From positions 3,240,001 to 3,272,000 of the forward strand of contig NC_009664.2 of assembly GCF_000017305.1 (NCBI RefSeq): a stretch of 32,000 nucleotides of DNA. Direction: 5' to 3'. Each line of letters opens with the position of its first letter. The stretch's first letter is position 1. This stretch comes from Kineococcus radiotolerans SRS30216 = ATCC BAA-149. Its GTDB lineage: Bacteria; Actinomycetota; Actinomycetes; Actinomycetales; Kineococcaceae. This document shows, piece by piece, positions 6,527-22,065 of the stretch. The notes under the pieces were generated by a model. That model was not told the origin of the DNA. It saw only the letters and a program-made list of their open reading frames with translations, and did no database searches. A program made the translations under genes and the position numbers.

Positions 6527-8083
6527 ATGGCTGCGGACGAAGTGCGACTGGTGCCGGTTCAACAGCGCAGGACCCTCGGTGGCGCCGCGCCCACCGGCGA
6601 GCGCCCCACGGGGGTCTCGCAGTCGCTGCTGCCCGGTCGACGCCACCGCACGTCCCGGTCCTCGGGGCGCCGGGCGGTCTGGCAGCGCGAGTACGTCCGG
6701 GCCATCGTCGTCGGCGACGGCCTGGCCGCCCTGTTGGGCGCCCTGATCGGCTGGGTGGTGCGGTTCGGCGACACCGCCTCCGCGCAGGGGGCTGCAGGCA
6801 TGTCCGCGTTGATCACGATGACGCTCCTGCCACCCGTGTGGGTCCTGACGATGCTTCTCTTCCGCGCCTACGAACCCCGCTTCCTCGCCGTCGGGTTCGA
6901 GGAGTTCCAGCGGGTCCTGCTGGCCGGGACGACCGTCGTCGCCATGGTGGGAACGGCCTCGTGGGCCCTCCAGCTCGACGTCGCCCGGGGGTTCGTCGTG
7001 GTCGCGCTGCCGGTCGCAGGCTGCCTGACCGTGCTGACCAGGTTCGGCGTTCGGCGCTACCTCCACGTCCGCCGCGCGGCCGGGGAGTGCATGCAGTCCA
7101 CCGTCGTCGCCGGGCACCCCTCGGCCGTTGCCGCTCTCGTGCAGCAGGTGCGTCGGGAGACGAACCACGGACTCCGGGTCGACGCGGCGTGCACCCCGGG
7201 GGGCGAGACCGACGCGCAGCTCGATGCGCTCGGCGTTCCCGTGCTCGGGAACCTCGAGCAGATCGCCGGCGTCGCCGAGGCGCTGGACGCCGACGTCGTC
7301 GCCACCTTGACCTGCCCCGAGCTCGACGGGCCTGTGCTGCGCCGGCTCGGCTGGGAGCTCGAGGGCACCCGCGCGGACATGATCGTCGCGCCCGCCCTCA
7401 CGGACATCGTCGGACCGCGGGTCGTCATCCGCCCCGTGTCCGGGCTGCCCCTGCTGCACGTCGACCGACCCGAACTGCGGGGTGTGCGCCATGCGGGCAA
7501 GGCGTTCTTCGACCGGGGCAGTGCCGCGCTGGGACTCGTCGTCCTCGCGCCGTTGTTCCTCGTCATCGCTGTCGCTGTCAAGCTCGACTCCCGCGGCCCG
7601 GTGTTCTTCCGCCAGACGCGCGTTGGTCGCGACGGCCGGGAGTTCTCCATGGTCAAGTTCCGCTCCATGGTGGTCGATGCGGAGAACCTCCTCATCGATC
7701 TGCGGACGAAGTCCGAGGGGAACGGCCTGCTGTTCAAGATGCGCCGGGATCCGCGAGTCACCCGCGTCGGCTCGCTGCTGCGCCGCTACTCCCTCGACGA
7801 GCTGCCGCAGTTGTTCAACGTGCTGGGCGGCAGCATGTCCCTCGTCGGACCGCGGCCTCCGCTGCCCAAGGAGGTCGCCGAGTACGGGAACGACCTGCGC
7901 CGACGCCTGCTCGTGAAGCCCGGGCTGACGGGCCTGTGGCAGGTCTCCGGCCGCTCCGACCTCGACCTCGATGAGTCGATCCGGCTGGACCTGCAGTACG
8001 TCGAGAACTGGTCGCCCACCTTTGACGTCATGATTCTCGCCAAGACGCTCAAGGCCGTGACCGGCGGTCGCGGGGCCTACTGA
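6527..8083 (+). CDS. polyprenyl-phosphate glycosylphosphotransferase (WbaP/CpsE-type priming sugar transferase)
   Basis: The C-terminal catalytic domain reads KLDSRGPVFFRQTRVGRDGREFSMVKFRSM...DPRVTRVGSLLRRYSLDELPQLFNVLGGSMSLVGPRPPLP...KPGLTGLWQVSGRSDL. Several N-terminal TM segments precede it. The ORF is open from 6368. ATG 6527 (MAADEVRLV) was chosen, but GTG 6368 and ATG 6413 remain possible. Confidence 0.88.
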   Translation: MAADEVRLVPVQQRRTLGGAAPTGERPTGVSQSLLPGRRHRTSRSSGRRAVWQREYVRAIVVGDGLAALLGALIGWVVRFGDTASAQGAAGMSALITMTLLPPVWVLTMLLFRAYEPRFLAVGFEEFQRVLLAGTTVVAMVGTASWALQLDVARGFVVVALPVAGCLTVLTRFGVRRYLHVRRAAGECMQSTVVAGHPSAVAALVQQVRRETNHGLRVDAACTPGGETDAQLDALGVPVLGNLEQIAGVAEALDADVVATLTCPELDGPVLRRLGWELEGTRADMIVAPALTDIVGPRVVIRPVSGLPLLHVDRPELRGVRHAGKAFFDRGSAALGLVVLAPLFLVIAVAVKLDSRGPVFFRQTRVGRDGREFSMVKFRSMVVDAENLLIDLRTKSEGNGLLFKMRRDPRVTRVGSLLRRYSLDELPQLFNVLGGSMSLVGPRPPLPKEVAEYGNDLRRRLLVKPGLTGLWQVSGRSDLDLDESIRLDLQYVENWSPTFDVMILAKTLKAVTGGRGAY

Positions 8084-8145: not shown

Positions 8146-9693
8146 TCACGGGACGGGGGAGGCAGGGACCTCCTGGTCGCTGCCCGCGGTGCTGCGGGCG
8201 CGGCGCCGGCTGACGATGTTCCGGACGTCGACAGTGAATTCCCGGGCCACCGGTCGCGCAAACAGGAGAAGCAACCCCGGGTAGACGACCCCGGCGACTC
8301 CCGCGGAGACGGCGACCCGCACCCATCGCACGTCCGTCGTGAGCAGGTGCAGGACCGCCAGCACGATCCCGGCCATGACGACAGCGGCCAGCAGCACCCG
8401 GGCCGAACGCAGCAGGCACCGGTATGGGATCCCCACGGCGCGGTGCAGGACGATCTGGCGCACTGGGAACGTCGCCGCCTGCCGCACCAGCAGCGCCACC
8501 GCGAGGGCGAACAACCCGTGCGAGGCGGCCAGCACGACGACGGCCAGGTGGCTGACGACGATCCCGAGCACCAGCAGCAGTTCCGGGCGCAGCTTGCCCA
8601 CGGCGACGAACACCGTGCGGTCGAAGTAGCTGAAGACCCCGATGGCCGCGGTCACAGCGGTCACCTGGGCAATGCTCCCCGTGACGGCCCACTGCTCGCC
8701 GAGCAACCACGGGACGAGGTCGGTGCTGGTCGCGGCGAGGAAGAGCATGGCGGGGAAGATCAGCGCACCACTGGCAGCCATGGCTGTTTCGTAGGCGCGG
8801 CTCATCCGCGGCAGGTCGTCCTGGATCTTGCTGAACGTGGGGGTGGCGACACTGCTGATGACTGAGGAACCGGTGTCTTGCACGAGCTTCACCAAACGGG
8901 TGCCGACGGTCCAGTACCCCAGCACGGTGGCGGATGCGATACCAGCCAGGACGAACTCCTCGCCGCGGTCCCGGGCCTGCATCAGCAGGTCGATGCCCAG
9001 GAGCTTGCTGCCGAAGGCGAGCATCTCCCTCGCTTGACGACGGTCGAAGCTCAGGTGCGGACGCCAGGACACAGCGCACCACAGCATGACGGTGTTGGTG
9101 AGCGATCCGACGAGCACCTGCGCGACCAGGGACCAGACCCCCGCGCCAGCCAGGGCCGCGACGATGGCGGTGACTGAGCCCACCAAGGTCGCGGCCGTTG
9201 CGCGGGCGGCCAGGGCCTTGAAGCGCAGTTCGCGACGCATGAGGGCGTTGGGCAGGCTGTTGGCCCCGGCCAGCAGCAGGTTGAGGGACAGCCAGAGCAG
9301 GACCGGGACGAGCTCGGGCTGGTCGTAGGCGTCGGCCAGCAGCGGAGCGCATGCAGCGAGGGCTCCGGCCAGGGCGATCGAGAGTCCCAGGCTGGTCCAG
9401 AACGCGGTGCTGCGCGTCCGCTCGTCGACCACCGGACGCCGGATGACGTAGGTCGCCAGACCGCTGTCGCTGATGATCGTCAGGACCGCGATGATTCCGG
9501 TGGCGAGGGCGACCAGGCCGAACGCGGAAGGTTCGAGCTGTCGCCCCACGACGACGAAGGCGGCGGCGCTCAGGGCCCGGCTCGCCCAGATCTGCCCAGC
9601 CGTCCACATCACTCCGACGGCCGAGCGGGCGCGGAGCCCCCCACCGGGCCGGGACTGATCGGTGTGCGGTCGGTCCGGTCCGCTCGATGACAT
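8146..9693 (-). CDS. wzx: Wzx-type polysaccharide flippase (MOP superfamily)
   Basis: Polytopic membrane protein with GRQLEPSAFGLVALATGIIAVLTIISDSGLATYVIRR...STAFW and LRFKALAAR typical of Polysacc_synt flippases. ATG 9693 (MSSSGPD) is preceded by GGGAGGAA about 12 nt upstream. The track start at 9756 is less likely. Confidence 0.85.
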   Translation of the reverse strand: MSSSGPDRPHTDQSRPGGGLRARSAVGVMWTAGQIWASRALSAAAFVVVGRQLEPSAFGLVALATGIIAVLTIISDSGLATYVIRRPVVDERTRSTAFWTSLGLSIALAGALAACAPLLADAYDQPELVPVLLWLSLNLLLAGANSLPNALMRRELRFKALAARATAATLVGSVTAIVAALAGAGVWSLVAQVLVGSLTNTVMLWCAVSWRPHLSFDRRQAREMLAFGSKLLGIDLLMQARDRGEEFVLAGIASATVLGYWTVGTRLVKLVQDTGSSVISSVATPTFSKIQDDLPRMSRAYETAMAASGALIFPAMLFLAATSTDLVPWLLGEQWAVTGSIAQVTAVTAAIGVFSYFDRTVFVAVGKLRPELLLVLGIVVSHLAVVVLAASHGLFALAVALLVRQAATFPVRQIVLHRAVGIPYRCLLRSARVLLAAVVMAGIVLAVLHLLTTDVRWVRVAVSAGVAGVVYPGLLLLFARPVAREFTVDVRNIVSRRRARSTAGSDQEVPASPVP

Positions 9694-9932
9694 CTTGCCT
9701 CGGTTCCTCCCGACGTGCGCGGGCGTGGCATGGGCAGGGAACTCGTCAGACAGCAACGGGGTGCGAACCGGTACTCACGCCAAGTGACGGCGACGGGCAC
9801 GAGGCGCAGCCTACTAGCCCGAACGGCGCGCTCCCCTCACTCGCGGCCACTGTGTCATGCTCTGCGTCGTCACGAGCCGGCACCTTCAGGTGCGCGACCC
9901 AGGGAGACCTCGATGAGCGGTGGACAGCCCGG
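9694..9932. promoter_or_regulatory. divergent promoter region, wzx versus GT4-GT2 operon
   Basis: 239-bp gap between divergently oriented starts. Inferred from gene geometry only; no promoter hexamers were confidently identified. Confidence 0.3.
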
Positions 9933-11060
9933 ATGACGGTCGAGCCCAGAGGCACTCAACCGGGCGGGACCGACTCCAGCCACGCTGGGCAGGAACCGAT
10001 CACGGTCCACCTCTTCCCGAGTCCCGCCCGTCGCATGGTCAATCCCTACCTGTCGATGCTCACGGCCGCGCTGCGCGAGCAGGGCGTCGACGTCCAGGCG
10101 CTGCACGGGAGATCGGGTGCTGCTGGTGGGCGCGGGATCGTGCACGTCCACTGGCCCGAGCTGAACCTGCACTCCGGCAAGTTGAGGTGGGCGCTGTGGG
10201 GGACCGGGAAGCTCATCGTCCAGGTCGTCGCCGCCCGCCGTCGCGGACTGCCCGTCGTCTGGACCGTGCACAACCTCCAGGCCCACGACGGATCCCGGCC
10301 GGTGCTGCAGCGGATCTTGTGGGCCGCCTGGCCCCGCCTGGTGACCGGTTGGCTGTCGCTCTCCCGCAACGGCGTCGATCGTGCGCAGGACGCCTTCAGG
10401 CCCTTGCGTCGACGTCCCTCGCGCGTCGTCCCTCACGGTGACTACGCCCCTGTCGTCCACGCGCCCGACCGAGCGGTCGCCCGTGGGCGGCTCGGGCTCC
10501 CCCTCGAGTCCCGGGTCCTCGCTCTCGTCGGCCGGATCCGCCCGTACAAGGGGGCCGAGGCGCTCGTTGAGGCCGTCGCCGCCAGCCCATCGGAGGACCT
10601 CCGGCTCGTCGTCGGCGGTGCCTGCGACGACGCGCCCTTGCGGGCGGCTCTCGAACGCACCGCCGCTGCCGATCCGCGCGTCCGGCTGCTGCTGGAGACG
10701 CTCCACCAGGAACAGGTCGACGACGTGCTGGCTGCGGCCGACCTCGTCGTGCTGCCTTTCCGCTCGGTGTTCAACTCCGGCTCGGTCCTGTTGTGCCTGA
10801 CGGCTGGTCGACCCGTCCTGGCCCCGCGCACACCGGTGTTCGACGAGCTCGCCGCGGAGGTGGGGGCCGGTTGGCTGCACCTCTACGACGGTGACCTGAC
10901 CCCGGAGGTGCTGGAGCGGGTGCTCGCCGAGACCACGACGCTCACCGGCGAACCCGACCTGCGACGACACCGTTGGGAGAACGTGGCTGCCGAGCACCTC
11001 GCGTTCTACGAGCGACTGCTCCGACGCTCGACCGCGCGCGCCGGGGAGGGTCGACGGTGA
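9933..11060 (+). CDS. glycosyltransferase, GT-B fold (GT4-like)
   Basis: Contains IVHVHWPELN...VVWTVHNLQAHDG and a C-terminal LVGRIRPYKG...VVLPFRSVFNSGSVLLCLTAGRPVLAP. ATG 9933 (MTVEPRG) was chosen. The ORF is open from 9687, but that upstream part would overlap the wzx start. Confidence 0.75.
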   Translation: MTVEPRGTQPGGTDSSHAGQEPITVHLFPSPARRMVNPYLSMLTAALREQGVDVQALHGRSGAAGGRGIVHVHWPELNLHSGKLRWALWGTGKLIVQVVAARRRGLPVVWTVHNLQAHDGSRPVLQRILWAAWPRLVTGWLSLSRNGVDRAQDAFRPLRRRPSRVVPHGDYAPVVHAPDRAVARGRLGLPLESRVLALVGRIRPYKGAEALVEAVAASPSEDLRLVVGGACDDAPLRAALERTAAADPRVRLLLETLHQEQVDDVLAAADLVVLPFRSVFNSGSVLLCLTAGRPVLAPRTPVFDELAAEVGAGWLHLYDGDLTPEVLERVLAETTTLTGEPDLRRHRWENVAAEHLAFYERLLRRSTARAGEGRR

Positions 11061-11926
11061 GCGTCGACGTCTCCGTCGTCATCCCCTGCTTCAACGCCAC
11101 CCGCGACCTGCCGGCGCAGCTGGAGGCGTTGGCCGGGCAGAGCACCGTCTGCACCTTCGAGGTCGTCGTCTCCGACAACGGCTCGACGGACGGTCTGGCG
11201 GAGTTCGTAGAGGAGTGGTCGAGGCGGGTCCCCTTCATGCTGCGCCGGGTCGATGCTTCTGCCCGTCGCGGTGTCGCTCATGCACGCAACGCCGGGTGCC
11301 GAGCCGCCCTCGCGGACGTCATCCTCGTCTGCGACGCGGACGACGTCGTCGGCGTCGGCTGGGTGGACGCGATGGCGAGGGCGTTGGAACAGGCCGACCT
11401 CGTGGGCGGGACCCTGGTGCACGGGCACCTGAACACCGCGTTGGTGCAGCAGTGGCGTCCCACGTCCCCGCCCGGCGTCCTACCGACGAAGCTGTCGCAC
11501 TTGCCGTACGCGGTCGGGGCGAACGTCGGGTTGCGCCGAGAGGTGTTCGACGCCCTCGGGGGCTGGGACGAAGGTTTCGTCGCCGGGGGCGATGACGTGG
11601 AGTTCTCCTGGCGGGCCCAGCACGCGGGTTTCTGCCTCCGGTCTGCGCCGGACGCCGTCATCGCCTACCGCATGCGGACCACGCTGTCCGCGAACGTCAA
11701 GCAGTCCTACTTCTACGCTCGGTCCGACGCCCTGCTGATGCGGACGTTCAGGTCTGCAGGGGTCCCGCGGCGAGGCCTTCGACCGTTGATCACCGAGAGC
11801 AAGTGGCTGGTGCGCAACGTGCCACGAACCCGTGAGCCCGGCTTCCGGGGGCAGTGGCTGCGGCGGGCGGCGATGCTGGCCGGTCGGTTCGTCGGATCCG
11901 TGCAGCACCGCACCTGGGCGGTCTGA
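11057..11926 (+). CDS. glycosyltransferase family 2
   Basis: GTG 11057 overlaps the upstream TGA (GTGA). The translation VSVVIPCFNATRDLPAQLEAL...VVVSDNGSTDG...ARNAG...LVCDADDVV is a GT-A fold with a DxD motif. Confidence 0.88.
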   Translation: MSVDVSVVIPCFNATRDLPAQLEALAGQSTVCTFEVVVSDNGSTDGLAEFVEEWSRRVPFMLRRVDASARRGVAHARNAGCRAALADVILVCDADDVVGVGWVDAMARALEQADLVGGTLVHGHLNTALVQQWRPTSPPGVLPTKLSHLPYAVGANVGLRREVFDALGGWDEGFVAGGDDVEFSWRAQHAGFCLRSAPDAVIAYRMRTTLSANVKQSYFYARSDALLMRTFRSAGVPRRGLRPLITESKWLVRNVPRTREPGFRGQWLRRAAMLAGRFVGSVQHRTWAV

Positions 11927-12009
11927 CCTGTACGGCACGAACGCGGCCGTCCGGTCGCCGGAGCAGAACCCCGGTCACCGAACGGCCGTGCTCCTGCGCA
12001 GCCCGTCCT

Positions 12010-12939
12010 TCAGTAGGACAAGCCTTGCGTCACGGTGAGGTCCGGCCACTGCGACTTGTTCCAGACGGCCTTCCAGCTGAGGTTGGGGGCGGTGTTGATC
12101 CGGAAGTTCTGCACGGTGATCCTGACCGACGTGGACGTGGTCCCGTTGCGGGTGCCGGCGAGCCAGAGCAGGTAGGCGTGACCCGTGCGCGAGCCGTTGA
12201 GGGTGACGTTGGCCAGGTTCCACTGCCCGAGCGCGCCCTGACCGCGGCTGAAGGGCTGGAGGTAGAAGCCCTGGTAATCGAGGTTGTTCGCCGTGAAGCC
12301 GTTCACCTCGAGCTTGGCCGGGCCGCTCCAGGTCTGGAAGGCGTCGCCGCCGTCGTGCTGCCCCATCACGGCGCCCAGGTGCGTCTTCACCCCGTCGATG
12401 AGGATGTTGCGCATCCGCAGCGTCAGGGTGGTCCTCTCGGCCTTGGAGTCGAAGTTGATGCCCTCGTAGACGTTGCTGCCGGCGCAGTGGAAGCCGTCCA
12501 GCACGATGGTGCGTGCGGCCTGGGCCTTGGCGTTGCCCGCGATGTACAGGCACCGGTTGTCCTTGGCGGCCTCGCCGGTGACGTGGTACTCCTTGGAGAA
12601 GTTCACGGTGCCGCCGGTGCTGATGACGTTGCGGCCACCGATGAGCGTGAAACCGCCGGCGACGTCCAGCGGGGTTTCTGGCCAGTCGACGAGGACGTCT
12701 CGGTCGGCGGGAGCCGTGAAGACGTTCCAGGTGGGAGATGGCTTCCAGACGACCGGGTTGACCAGGACGGGGTCCGTCGCGGGGGCGGCGACGGTGCTGC
12801 TCGTCGTGGTGGTGGTGAGCGTCCGGACGGTGCTGGTGGTTCCGGTGGCCAGAGCAGGGGTGGCCGCGACCGCCGTCAGCGTGAGGGCGGCGACGGCGGA
12901 GCTCAGGGCGGTGCGCAGGGGGCGCGAGAACGTGGGCAT
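12010..12939 (-). CDS. secreted beta-helix-like protein, uncharacterised family (paralogue 1 of 3)
   Basis: ATG 12939 is preceded by AGAGGAAC. It has a Sec signal (MPTFSRPLRTALSSAVAALTLTAVAATPALA) followed by a Thr/Ser-rich linker. The body shows a ~25-aa periodicity of N-[IV]-x-[IL]-x-G-like coils (IGGRNVISTGGTVNF, IVLDGFHCAG, RNILIDGV, LEVNGFTANN, NVTLNGS, ITVQNFRIN). The track ORF start at 13089 is an upstream extension. Confidence 0.8.
   Translation of the reverse strand: MPTFSRPLRTALSSAVAALTLTAVAATPALATGTTSTVRTLTTTTTSSTVAAPATDPVLVNPVVWKPSPTWNVFTAPADRDVLVDWPETPLDVAGGFTLIGGRNVISTGGTVNFSKEYHVTGEAAKDNRCLYIAGNAKAQAARTIVLDGFHCAGSNVYEGINFDSKAERTTLTLRMRNILIDGVKTHLGAVMGQHDGGDAFQTWSGPAKLEVNGFTANNLDYQGFYLQPFSRGQGALGQWNLANVTLNGSRTGHAYLLWLAGTRNGTTSTSVRITVQNFRINTAPNLSWKAVWNKSQWPDLTVTQGLSY
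12449..12669. repeat. 221-bp tract 100% identical to 13804-14024
   Basis: Base-by-base comparison of the two tracts (offset 1355 nt) found no mismatch. It encodes LDVAGGFTLIGG...VYEGINFD in both paralogues. The flanking DNA is clearly diverged. Confidence 0.95.
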
Positions 12940-13279
12940 CGAGGGTTCCTCTGGTGGGGGGTGAGAGGTGGTGACAAAAAGGGGATCGTCGTCTTCCGGG
13001 GCCCTCTTGATGCGGGTCTCGAGGCCCCCGCAGGCTGTCACGGAGGGTGATTGTGCGCAGGCGGAGTTGTTTCCCGCATGATCGCTCACCCTCTGCCACC
13101 TCAGAGCCCGTACCGGGAGCGGTTGAAGGGTAGTCCGAGATCACGGGTGACCCGTTCGGACGTACGGTCCTCACCGACGCGCGCCGTCTCGTGAAACACG
13201 GAATCACCCGGTCGGCGGCGTGGTCGCCCAGCGTGGGCTCTCGGGACCTCGGGCTCGGAGACCGTCCCGGAACGACGAC
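12940..13279 (-). promoter_or_regulatory. long upstream/leader region of paralogue 1
   Basis: 340 nt lie between the paralogue-2 terminator hairpin and ATG 12939. The region contains a T5 run on the minus strand (12976-12980) and a CCTCT/AGAGG pairing that could occlude the SD. No known riboswitch motif was recognised. Confidence 0.3.
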
Positions 13280-13309
13280 GAGCCGCACCGCCAGGTGGCG
13301 GTGCGGCTC
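13280..13309 (-). terminator. perfect 13-bp stem-loop downstream of paralogue 2
   Basis: GAGCCGCACCGCC-AGGT-GGCGGTGCGGCTC lies about 60 nt after the stop codon at 13371-13373. There is no clear U-tract, which is common in high-GC actinobacteria. Confidence 0.6.
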
Positions 13310-13370
13310 GGGTGGTGCGGGTGGTTCTGGTGGACGCCTGCCGAGAGGGGTGATCCGCGTGCGGTCTTCC

Positions 13371-14288
13371 TCAGCTTTGGTTGACGCGGACGTCAGTCCA
13401 CTGCTCCTTCTTCCAGACGGCCTTCCAGCCCAACGCGGGAGCGGCGGTGAGTTGCACGTTGCGCACGTCTATGGCGACACCGTGGTATCCCGCGGCGTTG
13501 CGGGTACCGGCGAGCCACAGGAGGTAGGCGTGGCCGGACCGGGACCCGTTGAGGGTCACGTTGGACAGGGTCCACTTCCCCATGGCGGTGGCGTTGCCGT
13601 GGGCGTAGGGCTGCAGGAAGAAGCCCTGGTAGTCGAGGTTGTTCGCCGTGAAGCGGTTGATCTCCAGGTTCAACGGCCCGTTCCAAGCCTGGAAGGCGTC
13701 CCCGCCGTCGTGCGAGCCGACGCTCGCGCCCAGGTGGGCCTTGACCCCGTCGATGAGGATGTTGCGCATTTTCAGCGTGATGGTGCTGCTCTCGGCTCTG
13801 GCATCGAAGTTGATGCCCTCGTAGACGTTGCTGCCGGCGCAGTGGAAGCCGTCCAGCACGATGGTGCGTGCGGCCTGGGCCTTGGCGTTGCCCGCGATGT
13901 ACAGGCACCGGTTGTCCTTGGCGGCCTCGCCGGTGACGTGGTACTCCTTGGAGAAGTTCACGGTGCCGCCGGTGCTGATGACGTTGCGGCCACCGATGAG
14001 CGTGAAACCGCCGGCGACGTCCAGTGGGCGGTCGGGCCAATTGACCAGCACGTCGCGGTCGGCGGGTGCGGTGAACGTCTTCGTCGCCGCGGAGGGCTTC
14101 CAGACGAGCGGATCGACCAGGATGGGGTCCATCGCTGGGTCGGCGACAGGGAGGGCCAGCGTGCGGGTGGCGCGGGGCACCGGGGGAGCGGCGTCGGCTG
14201 ACGGGGCAGCGACGGCCGCCGATGCCAGTGCGACGAGCGCGGTGGCGGCGGCCAGGGCGGTGGACAACGGACGGGGCAGCGTGGGCAT
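13371..14288 (-). CDS. secreted beta-helix-like protein, uncharacterised family (paralogue 2 of 3)
   Basis: 305 aa. GAGGAAC lies upstream of ATG 14288. It has a signal peptide (MPTLPRPLSTALAAATALVALASAAVAAPSADA). It aligns end to end with paralogue 1 but lacks the poly-Thr linker. Confidence 0.85.
   Translation of the reverse strand: MPTLPRPLSTALAAATALVALASAAVAAPSADAAPPVPRATRTLALPVADPAMDPILVDPLVWKPSAATKTFTAPADRDVLVNWPDRPLDVAGGFTLIGGRNVISTGGTVNFSKEYHVTGEAAKDNRCLYIAGNAKAQAARTIVLDGFHCAGSNVYEGINFDARAESSTITLKMRNILIDGVKAHLGASVGSHDGGDAFQAWNGPLNLEINRFTANNLDYQGFFLQPYAHGNATAMGKWTLSNVTLNGSRSGHAYLLWLAGTRNAAGYHGVAIDVRNVQLTAAPALGWKAVWKKEQWTDVRVNQS
13804..14024. repeat. 221-bp tract 100% identical to 12449-12669
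   Basis: Second copy of the identical tract; see 12449-12669. Confidence 0.95.
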
Positions 14289-14710
14289 CGGAGCGGTTCC
14301 TCGGCGTCGGTCTCGAAGCGGTGTCCCGTACGAGATCGTCGTTACCGCGAGCAGCCTGAAATCGCCCGCTGCGTCCGCTGTCGTGGTGACTGCGGGTGAC
14401 GTTGGGATGTCTGGGGGACGGAGGGGGAGGTACGCGTGACTTGGAGTGACGGAATGGCTATCAGAAGGGCTGGTGCGCTCGGCCGCCGCGCGACCGGGTC
14501 ATTGGAACGGGTGTTGGTGTGTCACCGTCAGCAGCAGCGAGGCCACCGCGTCTTCACCCTTGAGGACCTGGACATTGCTTTGCGTAGTGGGTACTGGGAC
14601 CTCGCACAGTGGTCATCGTCACGCTGACGGGTGAAGGTTGGGTCGCGGAGCCCCTGGTACGGTCGCAGGAACCGACGCGACTGGACGCCAGGAGTGACGT
14701 CATCGACACG
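14289..14710. promoter_or_regulatory. divergent intergenic region between paralogue 2 and lipoprotein paralogue 3
   Basis: 422 bp and visibly less GC-rich than the surrounding genes. GTGAC/GTCAC pentamers recur, and a perfect TGACGTCA palindrome sits at 14696-14703, just upstream of ATG 14711. Confidence 0.35.
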
Positions 14711-15643
14711 ATGAGCCGCCGGATCGCCCTCGGCTTGCTGGCCACCGGGACCCTCGCGGCCTGCGCGGGCGAGAACCAGCGTCCGCTTCCGCCGGACCGC
14801 AGGCTCAGCTGGGCACCGCCCAGCTTGGACTCCGGGACGACCATCGAGGTCACGGCAACGAACCACCACCTCGAACTCGACGCGAGGACGGACTACCGGC
14901 TCCGGTTGCCGTCGGATGTCCCTCTGCGGGTCGAGGGCGGCCTGGTCGTCATCGGTGGTCGCAACGTCGTCATCGTGGGCGGCGAGATCCAGATTCCTGA
15001 GGGTCTGTCCCAGGAGGCCGACGAATGGACCGGTCGGCGCGGGCTTTACCTCAAGGACCAGTCCGGTGTCGTCCACGTGGAGGGTCTGCGGTTCTCCGGT
15101 GACCTGGCCGAGGGCATCGATCTCGCGCAGTCCCGTGATGCCACGGTCCAGCTCCAGAACATCTCGGTCGACAGCGTGCGGGGCAGCTACGAGGGCAACC
15201 ACGCCGACCTGCTGCAGGTTTGGGCGGGGCCACGGGTCCTGCGGGTCGACGGGTTCTCGGGGACCACGGATTACCAAGGATTCTTCCTGCTGCCCAACCA
15301 GCACTACGACGGTCCGCGGCCGGACCTGTTCGACCTTCGACGTGTGCGCATCCGCGGCGTCGAGGGCAGCGCTTACCTCCTGTGGGCCCCCAAGGGGGAC
15401 CTCGACTGGCTCAAGTTGACCGACGTGCGGTTGGCCGTCGACGACAGCCGCTCCCGCAAGCAACTGCTCCGCCCGGTGGACACCTGGTCCGGGGTGGACG
15501 TGGCCGGTGGTGACGAAGCCGTCGACCTGCTGACGGCGGAGGAGGCCACGATGCCTGAGGGAACGCCCGGTCTGAGCTACCGTTCGCCGGGCTACCGCGA
15601 CGATCCCCTCCCGGCGAGCACCCCGCTCGGCCGGAACAGCTGA
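14711..15643 (+). CDS. lipoprotein, distant beta-helix-like paralogue (3 of 3)
   Basis: ATG 14711 opens MSRRIALGLLATGTLAAC, a lipoprotein signal with an LAAC lipobox. It shares blocks with paralogues 1 and 2: GG-x3-IGGRNV-x3-GG, R-x-LY, EGI, H-x-D-x2-Q-x-W-x-GP-x2-L-x-V-x-GF...DYQGF-x-L-x-P, and AYLLW. Confidence 0.8.
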   Translation: MSRRIALGLLATGTLAACAGENQRPLPPDRRLSWAPPSLDSGTTIEVTATNHHLELDARTDYRLRLPSDVPLRVEGGLVVIGGRNVVIVGGEIQIPEGLSQEADEWTGRRGLYLKDQSGVVHVEGLRFSGDLAEGIDLAQSRDATVQLQNISVDSVRGSYEGNHADLLQVWAGPRVLRVDGFSGTTDYQGFFLLPNQHYDGPRPDLFDLRRVRIRGVEGSAYLLWAPKGDLDWLKLTDVRLAVDDSRSRKQLLRPVDTWSGVDVAGGDEAVDLLTAEEATMPEGTPGLSYRSPGYRDDPLPASTPLGRNS

Positions 15644-15645
15644 GG

Positions 15646-16668
15646 TCAGCGACGTGCGAGAGCGACGAGCAGCTCCTGCCGCTGCTCGGCCCAGCGCGCG
15701 CGCTGGAGGTCGAAGGCCGCGGCGACAGCCTGCGGATCAGTCGCGGCCAGCGCCTCCCGTACCGCGGCCGCCAAGGCGTCCGCGCGGTTGGCGGTGTGGT
15801 GAGCTAGGGGGAACGTTTCCCGCAGGACCGGCCAGTCGCTGACCACGAGCGCGCGTCCAGCGTAGACGGCCTCGTACGCAGCACGCATCACGGATGTCGG
15901 CTCGGTCGTCAGGGCGAGCAGGACGGCGGCCTCACGAACGTTGCGCCAGTACTCGCCGGTATCGAGGAACCCCACGAACTCGACATTGGCCGGGGCGGAA
16001 CGCAGCAGTTCCGCTGGGCACCGGTCCACATCGCCGGTGATCCGGAAGCGCACGCCGGGCAAGGCGCGGGCTGCCTCGACCACTTCGGCGACCGGTTCAT
16101 CGCCGGCGAAGACACCGACGAACAGGGCCACGGCCTTCCCGTCCGGTTCCGGTGGCAGCATCGTCCGCGCGGGCGGGGCCTCGTGGACGATGACCGCCCG
16201 TCCGCCCCAGGCCCGGACCTGGTCGGCCCAGGGTTGGGCGGCCACGGCGACGGCGGAGGCTCGACGGGCGAGCACCCGCGTCACCGGCAGCATGGCCCGG
16301 GTCACCGGGTTCTCCTTCACCCCGAACGAACCGGTGTGGCTGTCCAGCACGAACGGCCGCCCCGTCAGAGCGGAGTACGCGGCCACGATCAGCCCGGGCA
16401 CGACGGGTGGGTTGACGACCATGACGGCGCCGGGTCGGAGACGGGCCAGCGCCCACGCGGTGCTCATCGACGACAGCGCGTAGCGGACGACGTTGGGCAA
16501 GCGACGACCACCGGGCAGTCTCGGGTGGACCTGCAGGGCCTGCCCGCCGAGTGCGTCCGCGATCTCCCGGGCGCGACCACCGTGCCGTTGCCAGGTGATG
16601 AACAGCAGATCGGCGCGTTCCGTCTCGGTAGCCCCGTCGGTAGGGGCAGTGTTCACGTCGGTGCTCAC
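15646..16668 (-). CDS. glycosyltransferase, GT-B fold (GT4-like, divergent)
   Basis: GTG 16668 overlaps the wzy TGA (GTGA). It has two Rossmann-like halves (LLFITWQRHGG...VVNPP...VLDSHTG, then ALFVGVFAGDEP...FVGFL...TEPTSVMRAAYEAVYAGRALVVSD). The track ORF extends to 17076 over wzy and was rejected. Confidence 0.65.
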   Translation of the reverse strand: MSTDVNTAPTDGATETERADLLFITWQRHGGRAREIADALGGQALQVHPRLPGGRRLPNVVRYALSSMSTAWALARLRPGAVMVVNPPVVPGLIVAAYSALTGRPFVLDSHTGSFGVKENPVTRAMLPVTRVLARRASAVAVAAQPWADQVRAWGGRAVIVHEAPPARTMLPPEPDGKAVALFVGVFAGDEPVAEVVEAARALPGVRFRITGDVDRCPAELLRSAPANVEFVGFLDTGEYWRNVREAAVLLALTTEPTSVMRAAYEAVYAGRALVVSDWPVLRETFPLAHHTANRADALAAAVREALAATDPQAVAAAFDLQRARWAEQRQELLVALARR

Positions 16669-18122
16669 AGCGGACTCCGTTGCAGGGGGGGGACGGCGAG
16701 GTGCAGGTGGACGTGCGAGGCGCTGCGGCGGCTTCGGCCCGCCATCGCGGCCCCGGCGAAGGAGAAGAGGGCCAGCGGCAACCCGGCGTTCGTCAGGTAG
16801 GGCCAGATGGTCATCGCAGCCGGAACGAAGACGACGACCCCGACGAGCGCTGCCAGGGTTTCCCGATGGGTGCTCGCACGTCGGAACGCGCTGACCGCTT
16901 CGAGGAACATGACGATCAGGACGGCGATCCCGGTCGCTGCCAGCAGCAGGCCCCCGCGCAGGATCCAGGTGAAGTACTGGTTCTCGGTGTGGGCGAACTG
17001 CACCGTGGAGGGCAGGTCGTTGCCGACACCGGCTCCAGCCGCCTGGCGCAGCAGGGGCAGGAAATCGCGTTCCCACACCAGGACGCGGTAAGCGACCGTC
17101 TGCGGGAGCAGACCCCCGCCTGCCCCCGACGCCTCAGTGGTCTGCTGGGCCAGCCGGCTCTCCAGCACCGAGGAGAACACGGTCACTGCGGTGAAGCCCG
17201 CCAGGACGAGCACCACCAGCGAACGGCCGAGCCGGCCCAGGAGGGCAGCGGCGACGAGTACGGCCACGGCCAGCCAGATGAACGACGTCACGGTGACGGC
17301 CATCACGACGGCCGTCAGTTGGGCTGCCACGAGCACGACGAGCTGCCAGCGAGACGCGATCGAGCGCGATCCCGTCAGCAGCATCGAGAGCGTCAGCACG
17401 ACCGGTATCAGCAGGTATCCGCACAGCGAATGCCAGATCGGGAACGGTCCGGTGACGCGTGGACCGCTGCCGTCGTGGGGCAAGGAGTACACGTCGGAGA
17501 TGCTCTTGAGGAACGTGGGAACCCCGGCCAGGTCGAAGAACTGGGCCATGGCCAGCAGGGAGACGACGAAGCTGAGCGCCAGTACCCAACGCAGCACGAG
17601 CCTCAGGTCTCCCTGATCACCGACCGCGCGGTTCGCCGTCCAGAAGGCCAACCAGAGCAGCGCGGGCTGAGCGGCTGCGCGCAGGAGGCTGGCCAGCGAG
17701 CTCCCGTCGACGGCAGCGTGGTACCCCGCGAAGAGGGCAGCGGTGGCGGCGAAGACGAACGTGGCCACTTCGGTGGCGGTGGTCCGCGGCCACACCGCGG
17801 GGCGGCGGAAGAAGGTGACGAGCGCGCACCCGACGACGACGATCATCGCCAGGTTCAGTCCTGGGAGGGCAACGGTGAACTTCAACCCGGCCACGGCCGG
17901 AGCCACGGCCACGACCAGCACGGCAGCCACGGCCGGCCGCGCCCAGACTGCGGCGACGACGACGGCGAGCACGGCCAGACTGAGCGGGGCCGCAGCGTCG
18001 AGCCGGGCCGACAAGCCGGCCACCGCAGCCGCCCCCACGACCCCGACTCCAACGAGCGCCGTCTGCAGCGACTGCCGACGGGCGGAGGAGTCCAGGGGTC
18101 GAGCGGTGGCCGGCCGGTTCAC
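16665..18122 (-). CDS. wzy: O-antigen ligase/polymerase family membrane protein (Wzy-like)
   Basis: 485 aa and about 10 or more hydrophobic segments. It carries the Wzy_C-like motif FAHTENQYFTWILRGGLLLAATG. GTG 18122 overlaps the wzz-like TGA. Confidence 0.8.
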   Translation of the reverse strand: MNRPATARPLDSSARRQSLQTALVGVGVVGAAAVAGLSARLDAAAPLSLAVLAVVVAAVWARPAVAAVLVVAVAPAVAGLKFTVALPGLNLAMIVVVGCALVTFFRRPAVWPRTTATEVATFVFAATAALFAGYHAAVDGSSLASLLRAAAQPALLWLAFWTANRAVGDQGDLRLVLRWVLALSFVVSLLAMAQFFDLAGVPTFLKSISDVYSLPHDGSGPRVTGPFPIWHSLCGYLLIPVVLTLSMLLTGSRSIASRWQLVVLVAAQLTAVVMAVTVTSFIWLAVAVLVAAALLGRLGRSLVVLVLAGFTAVTVFSSVLESRLAQQTTEASGAGGGLLPQTVAYRVLVWERDFLPLLRQAAGAGVGNDLPSTVQFAHTENQYFTWILRGGLLLAATGIAVLIVMFLEAVSAFRRASTHRETLAALVGVVVFVPAAMTIWPYLTNAGLPLALFSFAGAAMAGRSRRSASHVHLHLAVPPLQRSPL

Positions 18123-19231
18123 GGACGCCCGGAACGGATGGACCCGGAGGTGCTGGGGGCCGCCGCGGCGCCGGCCGGGCCCCCGTCGCCGAGGTCGTCC
18201 GCAGAAGGCGCGGCCTGGGGCCCGCCCACCGCGCCGCGAACCTTCCTGGCGTCGCAGAACAGGTGAACGACGCGAGTCGGGCGGATATCGGACAAGTACC
18301 TGACAGCGGCCTGGTAGTCACCAGCGCGGGCCCTGCGCGGCACCACCGCGACCACGAAGTCTGCGAGCACGAGGGCCTCGTCCGAACCGCCGTCGGCGGT
18401 GACGGGCCGATCACCTGCCACCCAGCGAGTGGTGGAACCCTCCTCGCTGCGCGAGTTCATCGCCACGGCGACGGCTTCGGCCGTCTCCGGGTGGTGCTTC
18501 GTCATGTCCACCAGCAGCACCTCGCGAGCGTCGCCCACCCGGTTCGACAACACGAGCCGTTGGGCGGCGTCCGGAGTGCCGGACCAGCTGACCACGGGTG
18601 CGGCTCCCAGGGTGCGAGCGTCCTCCGCGCTGTCGACCCGTTGGTCGAGGCGCTGGAGCAGCACGGCTCCGCCCAGGCCGAGGACCAGTCCGGCCAGGAC
18701 GCCGATGACCGGGGCGAGAGGGGCGAGACCGGACTGCTCGGTGACTTCACCGGGGGAGCGGAGAAGCTCGATGTTCCCCGGGGGGATCTGCGGGGTGGCT
18801 CCCGTGCCCAGGGTCTGGGTCAGAGCCGGAAAGAACCGGCCTACCTCGTCCGCGCTGCCGGCGGTGAAGTCGACCCGCAGCACGTTGCTGCCGGACAGTC
18901 CCTCGGCGTTCAGTCCCGCCTTGACGGTCTCGGGGGTCAGGCCCGAGGCCGCGGCCACGGCCCCCTGCAACTGCTCGTCGTTCTCCATCACCACCGGGTA
19001 GCTGGTGGCGAGCCGTTGAGCGTCGAAGATCGTCGTGGGGTGGGAAGTCATCGCTTCCGCGGGAGCGGTGGGGACGATGTAGGTCGCCGAGGCCGAGTAG
19101 ACGACCTGGGCGGTGGCCTGCACCGCCCAGCTGGCCGCGACGCCGGCGACGACACCGCAGAGGACGGCGATGTACCAGAACCGCCGGAGTGCGAGGAAGA
19201 GAAGTCGCCACGAGGAGGCGTTGCCGACCAT
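18119..19231 (-). CDS. Wzz-like polysaccharide co-polymerase with a degenerate kinase-like C-terminal domain
   Basis: ATG 19231 has AGGAG 10 nt upstream. Topology is TM1 (FWYIAVLCGVVAGVAASWAV), a ~130-aa external domain, TM2 (LAPVIGVLAGLVLGLGGAVLL), then DQRVDSAEDARTLGAAPVV as seen in PCP2/BY-kinase linkers. There is no GK[ST] P-loop and no Tyr-rich tail. Confidence 0.7.
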   Translation of the reverse strand: MVGNASSWRLLFLALRRFWYIAVLCGVVAGVAASWAVQATAQVVYSASATYIVPTAPAEAMTSHPTTIFDAQRLATSYPVVMENDEQLQGAVAAASGLTPETVKAGLNAEGLSGSNVLRVDFTAGSADEVGRFFPALTQTLGTGATPQIPPGNIELLRSPGEVTEQSGLAPLAPVIGVLAGLVLGLGGAVLLQRLDQRVDSAEDARTLGAAPVVSWSGTPDAAQRLVLSNRVGDAREVLLVDMTKHHPETAEAVAVAMNSRSEEGSTTRWVAGDRPVTADGGSDEALVLADFVVAVVPRRARAGDYQAAVRYLSDIRPTRVVHLFCDARKVRGAVGGPQAAPSADDLGDGGPAGAAAAPSTSGSIRSGRP

Positions 19232-19465
19232 GAGTGTTGGGCTCCTGTCGTCGAGTACGCCGTCATGATGACAGACGTCAGCAACTAGTGGCAGACGCGT
19301 CACGTTCCGTTGCTGGTCGAGCCCAGTACCCTACGCCCGCGCCACTCCCCGTGTTCGTGCGTGCACCTGTGAGACGCAGATCACACGATCGGAGGGCGAT
19401 CACCAGTCGCCCGCTGCGTGGGCTGGCGAGGACAGACCGCTGCGACGACAGAACAGGATCTCTCC
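19232..19465. promoter_or_regulatory. divergent promoter region, wzz-wzy-GT operon versus GT2-GT2 operon
   Basis: 234-bp gap between divergent starts. Inferred from geometry only. Confidence 0.3.
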
Positions 19466-20368
19466 ATGAGCACCAGCCCTGGGATCGAACCCCCCTTCGT
19501 CTCGGTCGTGATCCCCGTCTTCGACGATCCCGAGCGCCTGACCCTGTGTCTGCAGGCGCTGCAGGTGCAGACGTACCCCGAGGACCGGTTCGAGGTCGTG
19601 GTCGTGGACAACGCCTCGTCGGCGGGAAGACTCCCCTGCGTTCCCGACGACCCGCGGTTCCAACTCCTGCACGAGCCCCGCCGGGGGTCGTACGCGGCTC
19701 GCAACCGAGCCCTCGAGCTGGCTCGCGGTGAGATCCTGGTCTTCACCGATTCCGATTGCCTGCCCGCCTCCGACTGGGTCGAGCAGCTCGTCGCGGGTTT
19801 GACCGCCGAACCTCGCGCGGACCTCGTCGGAGGCCGGGTGGAGGTCGCCTTCGAGTCGGGCTCACCGCAGACGGCGGCGGAGTGGTACGAGCACCTGCAT
19901 GCGTTCCCCCAGGAGTACTACCTGCGGACGGCCAACTTCGCGGTGACCGCGAACATGGCCACCTGGCGTTCGTGCGTCTCCGCGGTCGGCCCGTTCAACG
20001 CCGGGCTCCAGTCCCGGGGCGATGCGGAGTTCGGGCAGCGGGTCGCCGCCCGGGGCGGTGTCCTCCGGTACGTCCCGGACGCCGTCGTGGGCCACCCCGC
20101 GCGGGCCACTCGCACAGAGCTCCTGACCAAGCTGCGCCGGACGTCGGCCGGCACGCGGGACAACGACCTGGCCGCCGGCGCGGGTCGCGCACACTTCGTG
20201 GGCCTGGCGGCCCGCCAGTGGTACCTGTTCGCCCGCAGCGTGGGCGCGTCCGTGATCCCGGGTCGCGGTCCCGACGGCTGGTGGGCCACGGCGCGGTACC
20301 TGGGGCTGTACGCGGAGATGAGGATGATCCAGACGGGTGTCTACCTGCGTGCGGCTGCGCGACGATGA
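19466..20368 (+). CDS. glycosyltransferase family 2
   Basis: ATG 19466 opens MSTSPGIEPPFVSVVIPVFDDPERLTLCLQAL...VVVVDNASS...ARNRA...LVFTDSDCLP, a GT-A fold with a DxD motif. Confidence 0.85.
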   Translation: MSTSPGIEPPFVSVVIPVFDDPERLTLCLQALQVQTYPEDRFEVVVVDNASSAGRLPCVPDDPRFQLLHEPRRGSYAARNRALELARGEILVFTDSDCLPASDWVEQLVAGLTAEPRADLVGGRVEVAFESGSPQTAAEWYEHLHAFPQEYYLRTANFAVTANMATWRSCVSAVGPFNAGLQSRGDAEFGQRVAARGGVLRYVPDAVVGHPARATRTELLTKLRRTSAGTRDNDLAAGAGRAHFVGLAARQWYLFARSVGASVIPGRGPDGWWATARYLGLYAEMRMIQTGVYLRAAARR

Positions 20369-20428
20369 TCAGGGCGAGCCGACCAGCGGCTCCTTGGCCG
20401 GTTCGACGGCAGCCACTATGGTGACGGC

Positions 20429-21373
20429 GTGAGTGCACAGTCCGTCGAGGAGTCGACACACCCTGTGGTCCCCGTCTTGCCGCGCGTCAGCGTGGTGATC
20501 TGCACCTACAACAGGTCCGCCCTCGTGCGCGAAGTCGTCGAATCCGCCCTGGCCGACCCGACCACCCACGAGGTCGTCGTCGCCGACGACGGGTCGAGCG
20601 ACGACACCGTCGAGGTGCTGCAAGGGCTCGCGGAGTCCGAGTCCCGGTTGGTCGTCGTCCCGTTGGGGAGCAACCAGGGGCGCAACGTGGCGCGGCAACG
20701 CGGGGTCGAGACCGCGACGGGGGAGATCGTCCTCCTGCTGGACGACGACGTCGTCCCGGGTCCGGACATCGCCCGCAAGCACGCCGAGCACCACGTGCGT
20801 GAGCGGGATGCCGTCGTCGTGGGTTTCATGCCGGTCCGCACCACCGAGGCGACGAACATCACCAGCCGGATATACGCCCAGGAGTACCTGGGCCGCATCG
20901 CGAAGTACGAGCAGGATTCGGCGAACGTGCTGGAGAACCTCTGGGGCGGGCACTGCTCGCTGCCGCGCGCGGCTGCGCTCGCGACGAGCGTGAACGCGAC
21001 GGGTTTCGAGAACTACTACCACCAGGATCGCGACTTCGGGCTGCGTTGCCGGGCCAACGGTATGCACGGGGTGTTCGACAGGCATCTGGTCAGCGAGCAC
21101 CGGCACACCCGCAGCCTGGACGCTTTCCTCAAGGACGCGAACCGGCGCGGCAAGGGCCTGTCCCTGCTGCGCGACCGGCACGGGGAGATCGCCATGGATC
21201 CCGCTCCACCCATCGCCCTCCTCGGCCGACCGCAGGTGCTCCCGCTGGCCAGGACCGCGACTGCTCCGCTCCGTCGATTGGGCGGGCGACCGCTGGTCCT
21301 CTCGGTCAAGCTGCTGCGCCGTCTGGCGACCTGGCAGGGGGCCGAGGAGTACCGCCGTTCCATCGCCGGCTGA
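20429..21373 (+). CDS. glycosyltransferase family 2
   Basis: Reads VSVVICTYNRSALVREVV...VVVADDGSSDDTVEVL...NQGRNVARQRG...VLLLDDDVVP. Confidence 0.85.
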   Translation: MSAQSVEESTHPVVPVLPRVSVVICTYNRSALVREVVESALADPTTHEVVVADDGSSDDTVEVLQGLAESESRLVVVPLGSNQGRNVARQRGVETATGEIVLLLDDDVVPGPDIARKHAEHHVRERDAVVVGFMPVRTTEATNITSRIYAQEYLGRIAKYEQDSANVLENLWGGHCSLPRAAALATSVNATGFENYYHQDRDFGLRCRANGMHGVFDRHLVSEHRHTRSLDAFLKDANRRGKGLSLLRDRHGEIAMDPAPPIALLGRPQVLPLARTATAPLRRLGGRPLVLSVKLLRRLATWQGAEEYRRSIAG

Positions 21374-21946: not shown

Positions 21947-22011
21947 GAATGACCTCCGGGTCGTATGGCGCAATCGGGTCACCGCCGGGCGGCCGGTGCA
22001 GGGTAGCGGAC

Positions 22012-22058: not shown

Positions 22059-22065
22059 CTGGAGC

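Follow-up and report, generated by a model that had tools for sequence, protein, structure and literature searches.

In the genome of Kineococcus radiotolerans SRS30216, three genes for exported proteins of about 305-310 amino acids, here called A, B and C, stand in the middle of a polysaccharide assembly locus. The window analysed is the stretch of 32,000 nucleotides that holds them (NCBI RefSeq assembly GCF_000017305.1, contig NC_009664.2, positions 3,240,001 to 3,272,000 of the forward strand), and all coordinates refer to it. The three proteins belong to an unannotated family, predicted from structure models to be right-handed parallel beta-helices, whose members recur beside Wzx/Wzy-type glycopolymer genes in Actinomycetota and may cleave the glycan made there. 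The genes are:

12010 to 12939, minus strand: gene A, a predicted secreted beta-helix paralogue of the A/B sub-branch, 309 amino acids, signal peptide at about residues 1-31
13371 to 14288, minus strand: gene B, a predicted secreted beta-helix paralogue, 305 amino acids, 69% identical to A
14711 to 15643, plus strand: gene C, a lipoprotein-type predicted beta-helix paralogue of the widespread C-type sub-branch, 310 amino acids

These open reading frames (ORFs) have the coordinates, strands and exported, paralogous products that were assigned to them in an initial annotation, made by a model from the sequence of the window. Against the 69% identity between A and B, C shares 28% with either of them overall; the paralogy of all three is nevertheless secure at the sequence level, and BLASTP aligns C with B at E=4e-24, with 34% identity across 173 residues. 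In public databases B is a 100% match to a K. radiotolerans entry labelled 'hypothetical protein'. A GAGGAA Shine-Dalgarno-like sequence precedes the ATG by 6-8 nt in both A and B. The AGGAG closest to the ATG of C at 14711 sits 16 nt away, which is poor spacing, and the public gene model of C begins 34 codons upstream at a GTG (14609), giving a protein of 344 amino acids. With either start the signal of C stays intact.

The export signals were judged by reading the sequences and by Kyte-Doolittle hydropathy. The N-termini of A and B consist of a basic region followed by a 15-residue hydrophobic peak (1.84 and 2.18, respectively) and an AxA-type cleavage site, and by inspection and hydropathy both have the features of Sec-type signal peptides. 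C begins with MSRRIALGLLATGTLAAC, in which IALGLLATGT leads into a lipobox, L15-A-A-C18, whose Cys18 is the sole cysteine of the protein; a lipobox that ends an N-terminal hydrophobic signal is the sequence hallmark of a bacterial lipoprotein. Two Sec signal peptides and one LAAC lipobox are what the initial annotation had described. The lipobox is preceded by SRRIAL, which conforms to SRR-x-x-L and may be a twin-arginine translocation (Tat) export motif. Mature A and B each contain exactly two cysteines, 22 residues or one rung of the helix apart, which are invariant within the A/B sub-branch; this spacing fits a disulphide in an exported protein, and Cys130 and Cys152 of A are the probable predicted pair.

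Long ORFs on the strands opposite A, B and C (for example 11854-13050 on the plus strand and 14528-15463 on the minus strand) were dismissed as high-GC artefacts, because the homologues belong to the sense frames. Neither promoters nor terminators were found by a scan of 11800-15800, and a scan of the whole window against Rfam returned tRNA only, with no riboswitch in the intergenic regions of 420-430 bp.

None of the three proteins could be given a family name, as the initial annotation had supposed. At E≤1, Pfam-A gave nothing for any of the three, and PHROGs nothing for A or B and a single match of function unknown, at E=0.12, for C. The NCBIfam scan of all three gave one line, WGxxGxxG at E=0.72, which falls inside the signal peptide of A and is noise. 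Every database source labels the proteins hypothetical, and our literature searches found no description of the family or of this K. radiotolerans locus. A profile search that covered all 1.84 billion representatives of a clustering at 50% identity collected 1,681 members at E≤1e-3, of which 1,364 reach E≤1e-10, indicating that this is a real sequence family of medium-small size. Its members come mostly from Actinomycetota, with some from bacteria of the Planctomycetes-Verrucomicrobia-Chlamydiae (PVC) group and from phages. A tblastn search with C matched nothing among GenBank phages, and one partial, irrelevant sequence among plasmids.

Within the family, the C-type and A/B-type proteins form distinct sub-branches with different distributions. 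The C-type is widespread, with 399 word-indexed homologues. In these a conserved L[ST]WAPPxLxxP motif typically comes after either a signal peptide or a cytoplasmic tail with a single transmembrane anchor. The rare A/B-type had 14 matches, in Kineococcus, Aquipuribacter and metagenomes; its members are secreted and often carry an N-terminal malectin domain. C-type proteins also have a C-terminal tail motif, at residues 281-300 of C (about 15551-15610 in the window), with the consensus GxGYxSPGY and with G287 and Y290 conserved in 89% and 86%, respectively. AlphaFold2 places this tail with high confidence (predicted local distance difference test score, pLDDT, of 87-96), and the motif is missing from A and B.

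AlphaFold2, supplied with an alignment of 94 family sequences, gave confident models of C (pLDDT 90.6, predicted TM-score 0.86) and B (88.1 and 0.81). In their DSSP strings about 6-7 rungs can be counted, each of three short strands, with a turn of 1-2 residues (Gly or Asn) separating the second strand from the third. This layout corresponds to the order PB1-T1-PB2-T2-PB3-T3 of strands and turns in right-handed beta-helices. Foldseek comparison of the models with PDB and BFVD returned nothing at E≤1e-3, every E-value being above 0.1; the weak neighbours are almost all right-handed beta-helix proteins, among them PL1, PL3, PL6, GH28, GH49 and GH87 enzymes, the fucoidan lyase FdlA, VexL, RbmB, tailspikes and phage depolymerases, together with the adhesins PfbA and SRRP. 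The best neighbour of C is the PL6 alginate lyase 7dmk (E=0.16, probability 0.98, TMq 0.46). A, B and C did not match the Pfam models Beta_helix, NosD or Pect-lyase_RHGA_epim (PF13229, PF05048, PF12708) at E≤1, and PF13229 had weak matches in 3 of 94 members (best E=0.0093), below the Pfam gathering threshold. Family profiles found nothing among PDB sequences. The models thus support, as fold-level evidence, the assignment of the family to right-handed parallel beta-helices of the pectate-lyase-like superfamily, where by the same models it has no close structural relative. The initial annotation had guessed this fold from a periodic sequence pattern, and the models of B and C and their neighbours bear the guess out.

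Conservation was measured on 264 family domains aligned to the family hidden Markov model, and residues are given in C numbering. The motifs GGRNV, H-x(1-3)-D-x2-Q-x-W-x-GP and DYQGF are present in A, B and C, as had been noted earlier, and no other polar feature of the family is conserved as strongly as the polar cluster that they contain. In this cluster 1, D61 is conserved in 98% of the domains, R110 in 91%, E134 in 86% (with Asp in a further 12%), H164 in 98%, D166 in 99%, Q169 in 98%, W171 in 98%, Y188 in 97% and Q189 in 98%, and it is intact in all three proteins. R110, E134, D166 and Q189 occupy the equivalent position in successive rungs, as do Y113, N/D137, Q169 and F192. Residue faces were assigned from DSSP and rung periodicity, which would put cluster 1 at the ends of the T3 turns and on PB1 in rungs 2-5. 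In pectate-lyase-like enzymes the substrate groove runs along this T3/PB1 side.

A second cluster comprises H122 (90%), E124 (94%), Q147 (84%), R178 (72%), D180 (96%) and R210 (83%). On the same reading of DSSP and periodicity these are outward-facing PB2 positions beside the T2 turn, expected on the face opposite cluster 1. Cluster 2 is fully kept in C and lost in A and B, which replace its six residues by V, D, R/K, E, N and A/S; at the scored positions (R178 was left unscored) A and B reach 0/5 and are the most extreme outliers of the 264 domains. A few other family members lack cluster 1 yet keep cluster 2, most of them as second domains of tandem proteins. The clusters map to the window as follows:

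15200 to 15283, plus strand: cluster 1 core in C, from H164-A-D166-LL-Q169-V-W171-A-G-P to D187-Y188-Q189-G-F, predicted T3/PB1 side of rungs 4-5
13674 to 13712, minus strand: cluster 1 core in B, H193-DGG-D197-AF-Q200-A-W202-N-G-P
12319 to 12357, minus strand: cluster 1 core in A, H195-DGG-D199-AF-Q202-T-W204-S-G-P
15074 to 15250, plus strand: span with most of cluster 2 in C (H122, E124, Q147, R178, D180), with R210 downstream at 15338-15340

At least ten polar residues are conserved at 90-99% in 264 domains from several phyla, a dense near-invariant set of a kind seen more typically at a catalytic centre than in residues that maintain a fold. To judge from these alignments, both clusters look functional.

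The tandem genes A and B also carry a trace of recent exchange. Over 73 codons (219 nt) there is not a single nucleotide difference between them:

12451 to 12669, minus strand: conversion tract, A copy, covering rungs 1-3, from LDVAGGFTLIGGRNV to YEGINFD
13806 to 14024, minus strand: conversion tract, B copy

Outside this tract the coding sequences differ by about 0.57-0.86 synonymous (dS) and 0.21-0.25 non-synonymous (dN) substitutions per site, and the non-coding flanks do not align. A tract free of differences amid flanks of such dS indicates recent gene conversion between what are otherwise old paralogues, and the substitution rates place A and B under purifying selection outside the converted part. 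The conversion tract, the second cluster kept in C and lost in A and B, and the division into sub-branches had all escaped the initial annotation.

By its gene content, the neighbourhood of A, B and C is a Wzx/Wzy-type polysaccharide assembly locus. Its other genes are:

4152 to 5189, plus strand: polysaccharide pyruvyl transferase
5186 to 6316, plus strand: GT4 glycosyltransferase
6368 to 8083, plus strand: priming polyprenyl-phosphate sugar-phosphate transferase (Bac_transf; TIGR03025, E=1e-120)
8146 to 9756, minus strand: Wzx-type flippase of the multidrug/oligosaccharidyl-lipid/polysaccharide (MOP) class (Polysacc_synt_3)
9687 to 11060, plus strand: GT4 glycosyltransferase
10973 to 11926, plus strand: GT2 glycosyltransferase
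15646 to 17076, minus strand: GT4-type glycosyltransferase, convergent with C and co-conserved with the family
16665 to 18122, minus strand: Wzy-like polytopic membrane protein, 485 amino acids, whose sole Pfam match is weak (Wzy_C, E=0.0028)
18119 to 19303, minus strand: Wzz-like protein resembling a polysaccharide co-polymerase, 394 amino acids, two transmembrane segments, with a very weak Wzz match (E=0.32) at the expected N-terminal position
19418 to 21373, plus strand: two GT2 genes
21380 to 22861, minus strand: hexapeptide acyltransferase
22066 to 23103, minus strand: GT28C-type glycosyltransferase related to WelK, PssD and PssE, below curated cut-offs

The GT28C protein has its best match in the beta-1,4-glucuronosyltransferase WelK (E=1.5e-32, falling far short of the curated cut-off), and the flippase resembles the teichuronic-acid flippase TuaB (E=1e-39, likewise below the cut-off). 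The pyruvyl transferase suggests that the polymer is anionic through pyruvylation; taken with the WelK-like enzyme, it hints, weakly on both counts, at an anionic and perhaps uronate-containing polymer, which would allow a lyase. Across the loci of actinobacteria the Wzy-like and Wzz-like proteins, neither of which has an assignment in Pfam or NCBIfam, are conserved together with the beta-helix gene, and they look like a divergent polymerase and co-polymerase pair; the Wzz-like protein has its two transmembrane segments followed by a C-terminal cytoplasmic domain, and a PDB sequence search with it found nothing.

As listed, the GT4 ORF next to C shares about 410 nt with the Wzy-like gene, which has the same orientation, and its first 136 or so codons are rich in Arg and Pro and lie outside the glycosyltransferase domain. 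The true start is probably near GTG 16668, which overlaps the stop of the upstream Wzy-like gene and suggests translational coupling. A tRNA-Ala(CGC) gene lies at 3982-4056, directly upstream of the first polysaccharide gene; there the GC content falls from about 0.79 to about 0.71, and it runs at 0.67-0.73 across the locus. A MoeA/molybdenum cofactor gene block flanks the locus both in the window (162-1451) and in Cellulomonas bogoriensis (L005), from which the arrangement appears to be old and not a recent island. Further downstream, beyond a protein O-mannosyltransferase gene (23212-24840) and rsmI, two adjacent GT61-family genes and a 683-residue Acyl_transf_3 protein at 26840-29287 may form a second glycan-related module.

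The genomic context of the family was surveyed in one genome per species, which yielded 59 loci. Most are from Actinomycetota (Kineococcus, Pseudokineococcus, Quadrisphaera, Cellulomonas, Actinotalea, Longivirga, Nanopelagicales, Acidothermaceae, Solirubrobacterales and Acidimicrobiia) and the remainder from Lentisphaerae, Kiritimatiellia, Planctomycetota, Abditibacteria and Dehalococcoidia. The loci were searched by tblastn with the window proteins, and counts refer to the 32 that are well flanked (at least 18 kb of sequence). At least two different assembly-gene homologues (Bac_transf, Wzx, Wzy-like, Wzz-like, GT4, GT2, GT28C) were found in 19 of the 32, so that the link to wzx/wzy loci in other actinobacteria, raised earlier from this one window, holds. 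The C-type gene often directly adjoins the priming transferase (L001, L005, L006, L034, L036) or a GT28C/GT4 pair (L007, L009, L010, L016, L027), and GT28C directly follows it in loci of Nanopelagicales, Longivirga and Acidothermaceae. The family is present in 2-4 copies in 13 of the 32 loci, with the maximum of four in Cellulomonas aerilata (L029), and a membrane-anchored C-type protein is repeatedly paired with a secreted one of the A/B-type (L003/L030, L008, L057). The triad with split localisation, which had been taken as unusual, is therefore typical of the family.

Elsewhere the contexts of the family differ. A/B-type homologues in Kineococcus and Aquipuribacter sometimes stand alone. 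In a Lentisphaerae locus (L031, 9959-10873) the homologue lies between two AraC regulators and beside a GH130 gene, and in a Phycisphaerales locus (L042, 9974-10858) it follows a hybrid of a periplasmic-binding and an AraC regulator and a DUF1559 pseudopilin-like gene. Both homologues are stand-alone secreted proteins, and their setting looks catabolic by its gene content, unlike the biosynthetic setting in actinobacteria. In one Abditibacteriaceae genome the homologue is the C-terminal part of an 861-residue protein with a PF12708 domain, and the next gene also encodes a beta-helix; further loci outside Actinomycetota have no obvious theme. Viral contigs of IMG/VR contributed 18 relatives (L071-L088). 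One (L081, 4962-5837) lies two genes downstream of a homologue of the portal protein of Arthrobacter phages, the only informative match when five flanking ORFs of the viral-contig homologues were searched. On this contig and on L080 the relative follows three ORFs, a portal-like one of about 705 amino acids and two others of about 600-690 and about 96. The polysaccharide genes are absent from the viral contigs.

Fusions to other domains add a further line of evidence. The beta-helix domain is joined to accessory modules (carbohydrate-binding malectin in many cases, fn3 and Gmad2), to anchors (SLH, CWB2 and dockerin), to catalytic domains and to a second beta-helix domain (PF12708). The catalytic partners are PhoD-like phosphatase (twice), Metallophos, the PF04185 phosphoesterase and, in P0185, an FGE-sulfatase domain; phosphoesterases of three families thus occur in 4 of the 20 multidomain members scanned (P0201, P0244, P0252 and P0149), Metallophos together with dockerin. 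Binding modules and wall anchors are the usual accessories of glycan-active enzymes and favour an enzyme here. The phosphoesterase fusions could reflect wall polymers that contain phosphate, or else a role of the beta-helix in targeting to the wall.

From the family membership, fold class, export signals, conservation, synteny and fusions observed above we infer catalysis, its substrate and which cluster would be the active site. With our confidence evenly poised, we favour the reading that A, B and C belong to a new family of beta-helix enzymes that cleave glycans, here the polymer of their own locus, by analogy with WceF, RbmB and VexL. The grounds are the beta-helix neighbours, the dense conservation, the biosynthetic synteny, the catabolic-looking contexts in the PVC group, the fusions, the phage copies, the precedent of WceF and the purifying selection. 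In this reading C is the lipid- or membrane-tethered core form, a fixed component of the syntenic Wzx/Wzy-type glycopolymer cluster across Actinomycetota, and A and B are a tandem, recently gene-converted pair of the secreted sub-branch. They would cut the polymer of the locus in an endo-acting manner, as hydrolases or lyases, C at the outer face of the membrane and A and B in the wall or medium, and cleavage would control chain length, free the polymer or remodel it. The site proposed for this is the groove of T3 turns and PB1 strands in rungs 2-5, lined by R110, E134, H164, D166, Q169, W171, Y188 and Q189, in which the adjacent-rung carboxylates E134 and D166, with the His, Tyr, Gln and Arg residues, would be compatible with either a hydrolase or a lyase. 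A more specific form of this proposal is tentative: that the proteins found a new glycoside hydrolase (GH) or polysaccharide lyase (PL) family, that the tethered member is obligatory in a conserved actinobacterial Wzx/Wzy pathway, for release, sizing or handover of nascent polymer, that two sites lie on opposite faces, and that A and B are derived forms that keep one site and have a different activity or partner.

Several observations weigh against cleavage. No significant match to any characterised enzyme family was obtained, whether by Foldseek (E>0.1) or from PDB profiles, Pfam, NCBIfam and PHROGs, which were effectively empty. The canonical catalytic motifs of GH28, PL3 and AlgG are all missing from A, B and C: they have none of the GH28 segments NTD, G/DD, GHG and RIK, no match to PF00295, and no DPH[DE] epimerase motif of AlgG/AlgE. 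The choice of cluster 1 as the active site draws on sequence periodicity, DSSP and analogy, and there are two separate clusters; should cluster 2 be the site of catalysis, neither A nor B would be active. In the phosphoesterase and sulfatase fusions, moreover, the beta-helix could be the targeting or binding part.

This last point leads to a reading that we consider unlikely, in which the proteins bind polymer without catalysis and would serve as adhesins at the surface, as matrix organisers, as scaffolds or as anchors in the wall, comparable to PfbA and SRRP-BR or, in function, to SLH and CWB2. PfbA and SRRP binding regions are among the weak Foldseek neighbours of B, the fusions to PhoD, Metallophos, the PF04185 phosphoesterase and FGE-sulfatase could make the beta-helix a wall-targeting module, the PB1 stripe of conserved outward-facing aromatics (W171, F192, Y222) would suit sugar stacking, and there is no recognisable catalytic motif. 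However, the His, Asp, Glu, Gln, Tyr and Arg residues that are near-invariant across phyla stand more densely than is usually required for a binding module, a domain already fused to malectin, SLH, CWB2 and dockerin would be redundant if itself a binder, and the PVC-group copies sit in catabolic-looking contexts. An improbable alternative is a tailoring enzyme that does not cleave, such as a C5-epimerase acting on uronic acids after polymerisation, like AlgG in alginate, or another modifying activity. AlgG and AlgE are beta-helix proteins that work outside the cytoplasm, the co-conserved WelK-like GT28C hints at uronic acid in the polymer, and the family appears as a fixed component of a biosynthetic cluster; but besides the missing DPH[DE] motif, none of the 94 members reaches the PF13229 threshold, no NosD match is listed, and the copies that stand alone, lie in phages or carry carbohydrate-binding modules fit degradation better.

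The same phosphoesterases, carried by 4 of the 20 multidomain members, and the TuaB-like flippase could instead suggest that the proteins, with phosphoesterases, are enzymes or recognition modules for phosphodiester wall polymers of teichoic-acid or phosphoglycan type, for instance in turnover under phosphate limitation. Bacillus subtilis PhoD degrades teichoic acid, as does the beta-helix protein gp12 of phage phi29. We regard this as distinctly improbable, given that obvious teichoic-acid genes are missing from the window and the syntenic loci, that the phosphoesterase fusions are a minority, and that there is neither a sequence nor a structural match to a phosphodiesterase. Hardly any weight can be given to divergent PL3 pectate lyases with Ca2+-dependent beta-elimination, for which the case is a phmmer search with B. 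It matched nine PL3 chains of Caldicellulosiruptor bescii, at best with E=5e-4 over 107 residues (B 145-251), in a statistically insecure alignment that sets E157 and D197 of B, the family residues E134 and D166, opposite the Ca2+-binding carboxylates E84 and D107. The chains also recur in the Foldseek lists with target-normalised TM-scores of 0.31-0.42, but with E-values of 0.5-2.6. E84, D107 and K108 are the residues mutated in the deposited structures, according to PDB entry titles; K108, which we take to be the catalytic base, corresponds to Ala in A and B and to Leu in C. Neither the whole-family nor the A/B-only profile matched a PL3 chain among PDB sequences at E≤10, C alone had no PL3 match there, and PF03211 (PL3) matched neither A, B, C nor any of 94 members. 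PL3 membership was therefore rejected, and what is left is a resemblance at the level of the fold.

For the favoured reading of glycan cleavage, the beta-helix fold is already known, as is the presence of a beta-helix glycan-processing protein inside an exopolysaccharide locus (WceF, RbmB, VexL, AlgG). What is new is the sequence family and its fixed place in a syntenic actinobacterial Wzx/Wzy cluster, which we did not find described in the literature searched. Should the proteins be enzymes, they would constitute a new CAZy-type family and an unannotated, conserved extracytoplasmic step in Wzx/Wzy-dependent glycopolymer assembly in Actinomycetota, a group in which the pathways to surface polysaccharides have been little characterised; they would also offer small single-domain beta-helix candidates (about 270 amino acids) for enzymes that depolymerise the matrix or wall polymers of actinobacteria. 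A testable annotation becomes available for about 1,700 clusters of 'hypothetical proteins', with defined mutational targets in H164, D166, E134 and Y188 as against H122, E124 and D180.

Among characterised beta-helix proteins, the PL6 lyase BcAlyPL6 (7dmk) is the closest to C by Foldseek, with 248 aligned columns, sharing the right-handed fold and acting on an anionic polysaccharide; it differs in being a two-domain protein of 730 amino acids, with 11-13% identity and a root-mean-square deviation of 6-7 Å. The C. bescii PL3 lyases (3t9g, 4yza) are likewise small beta-helices, of about 200 amino acids, whose two carboxylates align with those of B in the single-sequence match, whereas the family profiles do not reproduce the similarity, K108 is not conserved and PF03211 is missing. 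AlgG and AlgE share with the family an extracytoplasmic beta-helix that is integral to polysaccharide biosynthesis, and differ by their DPH[DE] motif; resemblance to PF13229 in the family stays sub-threshold in its 3 of 94 members, and NosD matches are not listed. Closer in role are RbmB, the Vibrio polysaccharide lyase, and VexL, the Vi-antigen depolymerase, which are beta-helix enzymes for the exopolysaccharide or capsule of their own producer. Both are weak Foldseek neighbours of C (ranks 15 and 22, E of about 1-1.5, TM-scores of about 0.2), and both belong to other sequence families with other export, VexL to an ABC-transporter-dependent system (6fi2 entry title).

The nearest precedent for the proposed cleavage is WceF of Pantoea stewartii, a Tat-exported beta-helix glycanase that is encoded in the stewartan biosynthesis locus and cleaves its own polymer, which becomes larger when WceF is lost (PMC7949094). 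WceF is a trimeric, tailspike-like protein of 736 amino acids in a Gram-negative periplasm, whereas A, B and C have about 300 amino acids and 6-7 rungs, and are lipid- or membrane-anchored in, or secreted by, a Gram-positive organism. There is no detectable sequence similarity between them, WceF is absent from the top 50 Foldseek matches, and none of A, B and C matches PF12708. AmsF and WcaM, from exopolysaccharide clusters of enterobacteria, are presumably of the WceF type. As in the case of WceF, A, B and C carry export signals and sit inside a Wzx/Wzy polysaccharide locus, and the RR motif of C may indicate that it, too, is exported by Tat.

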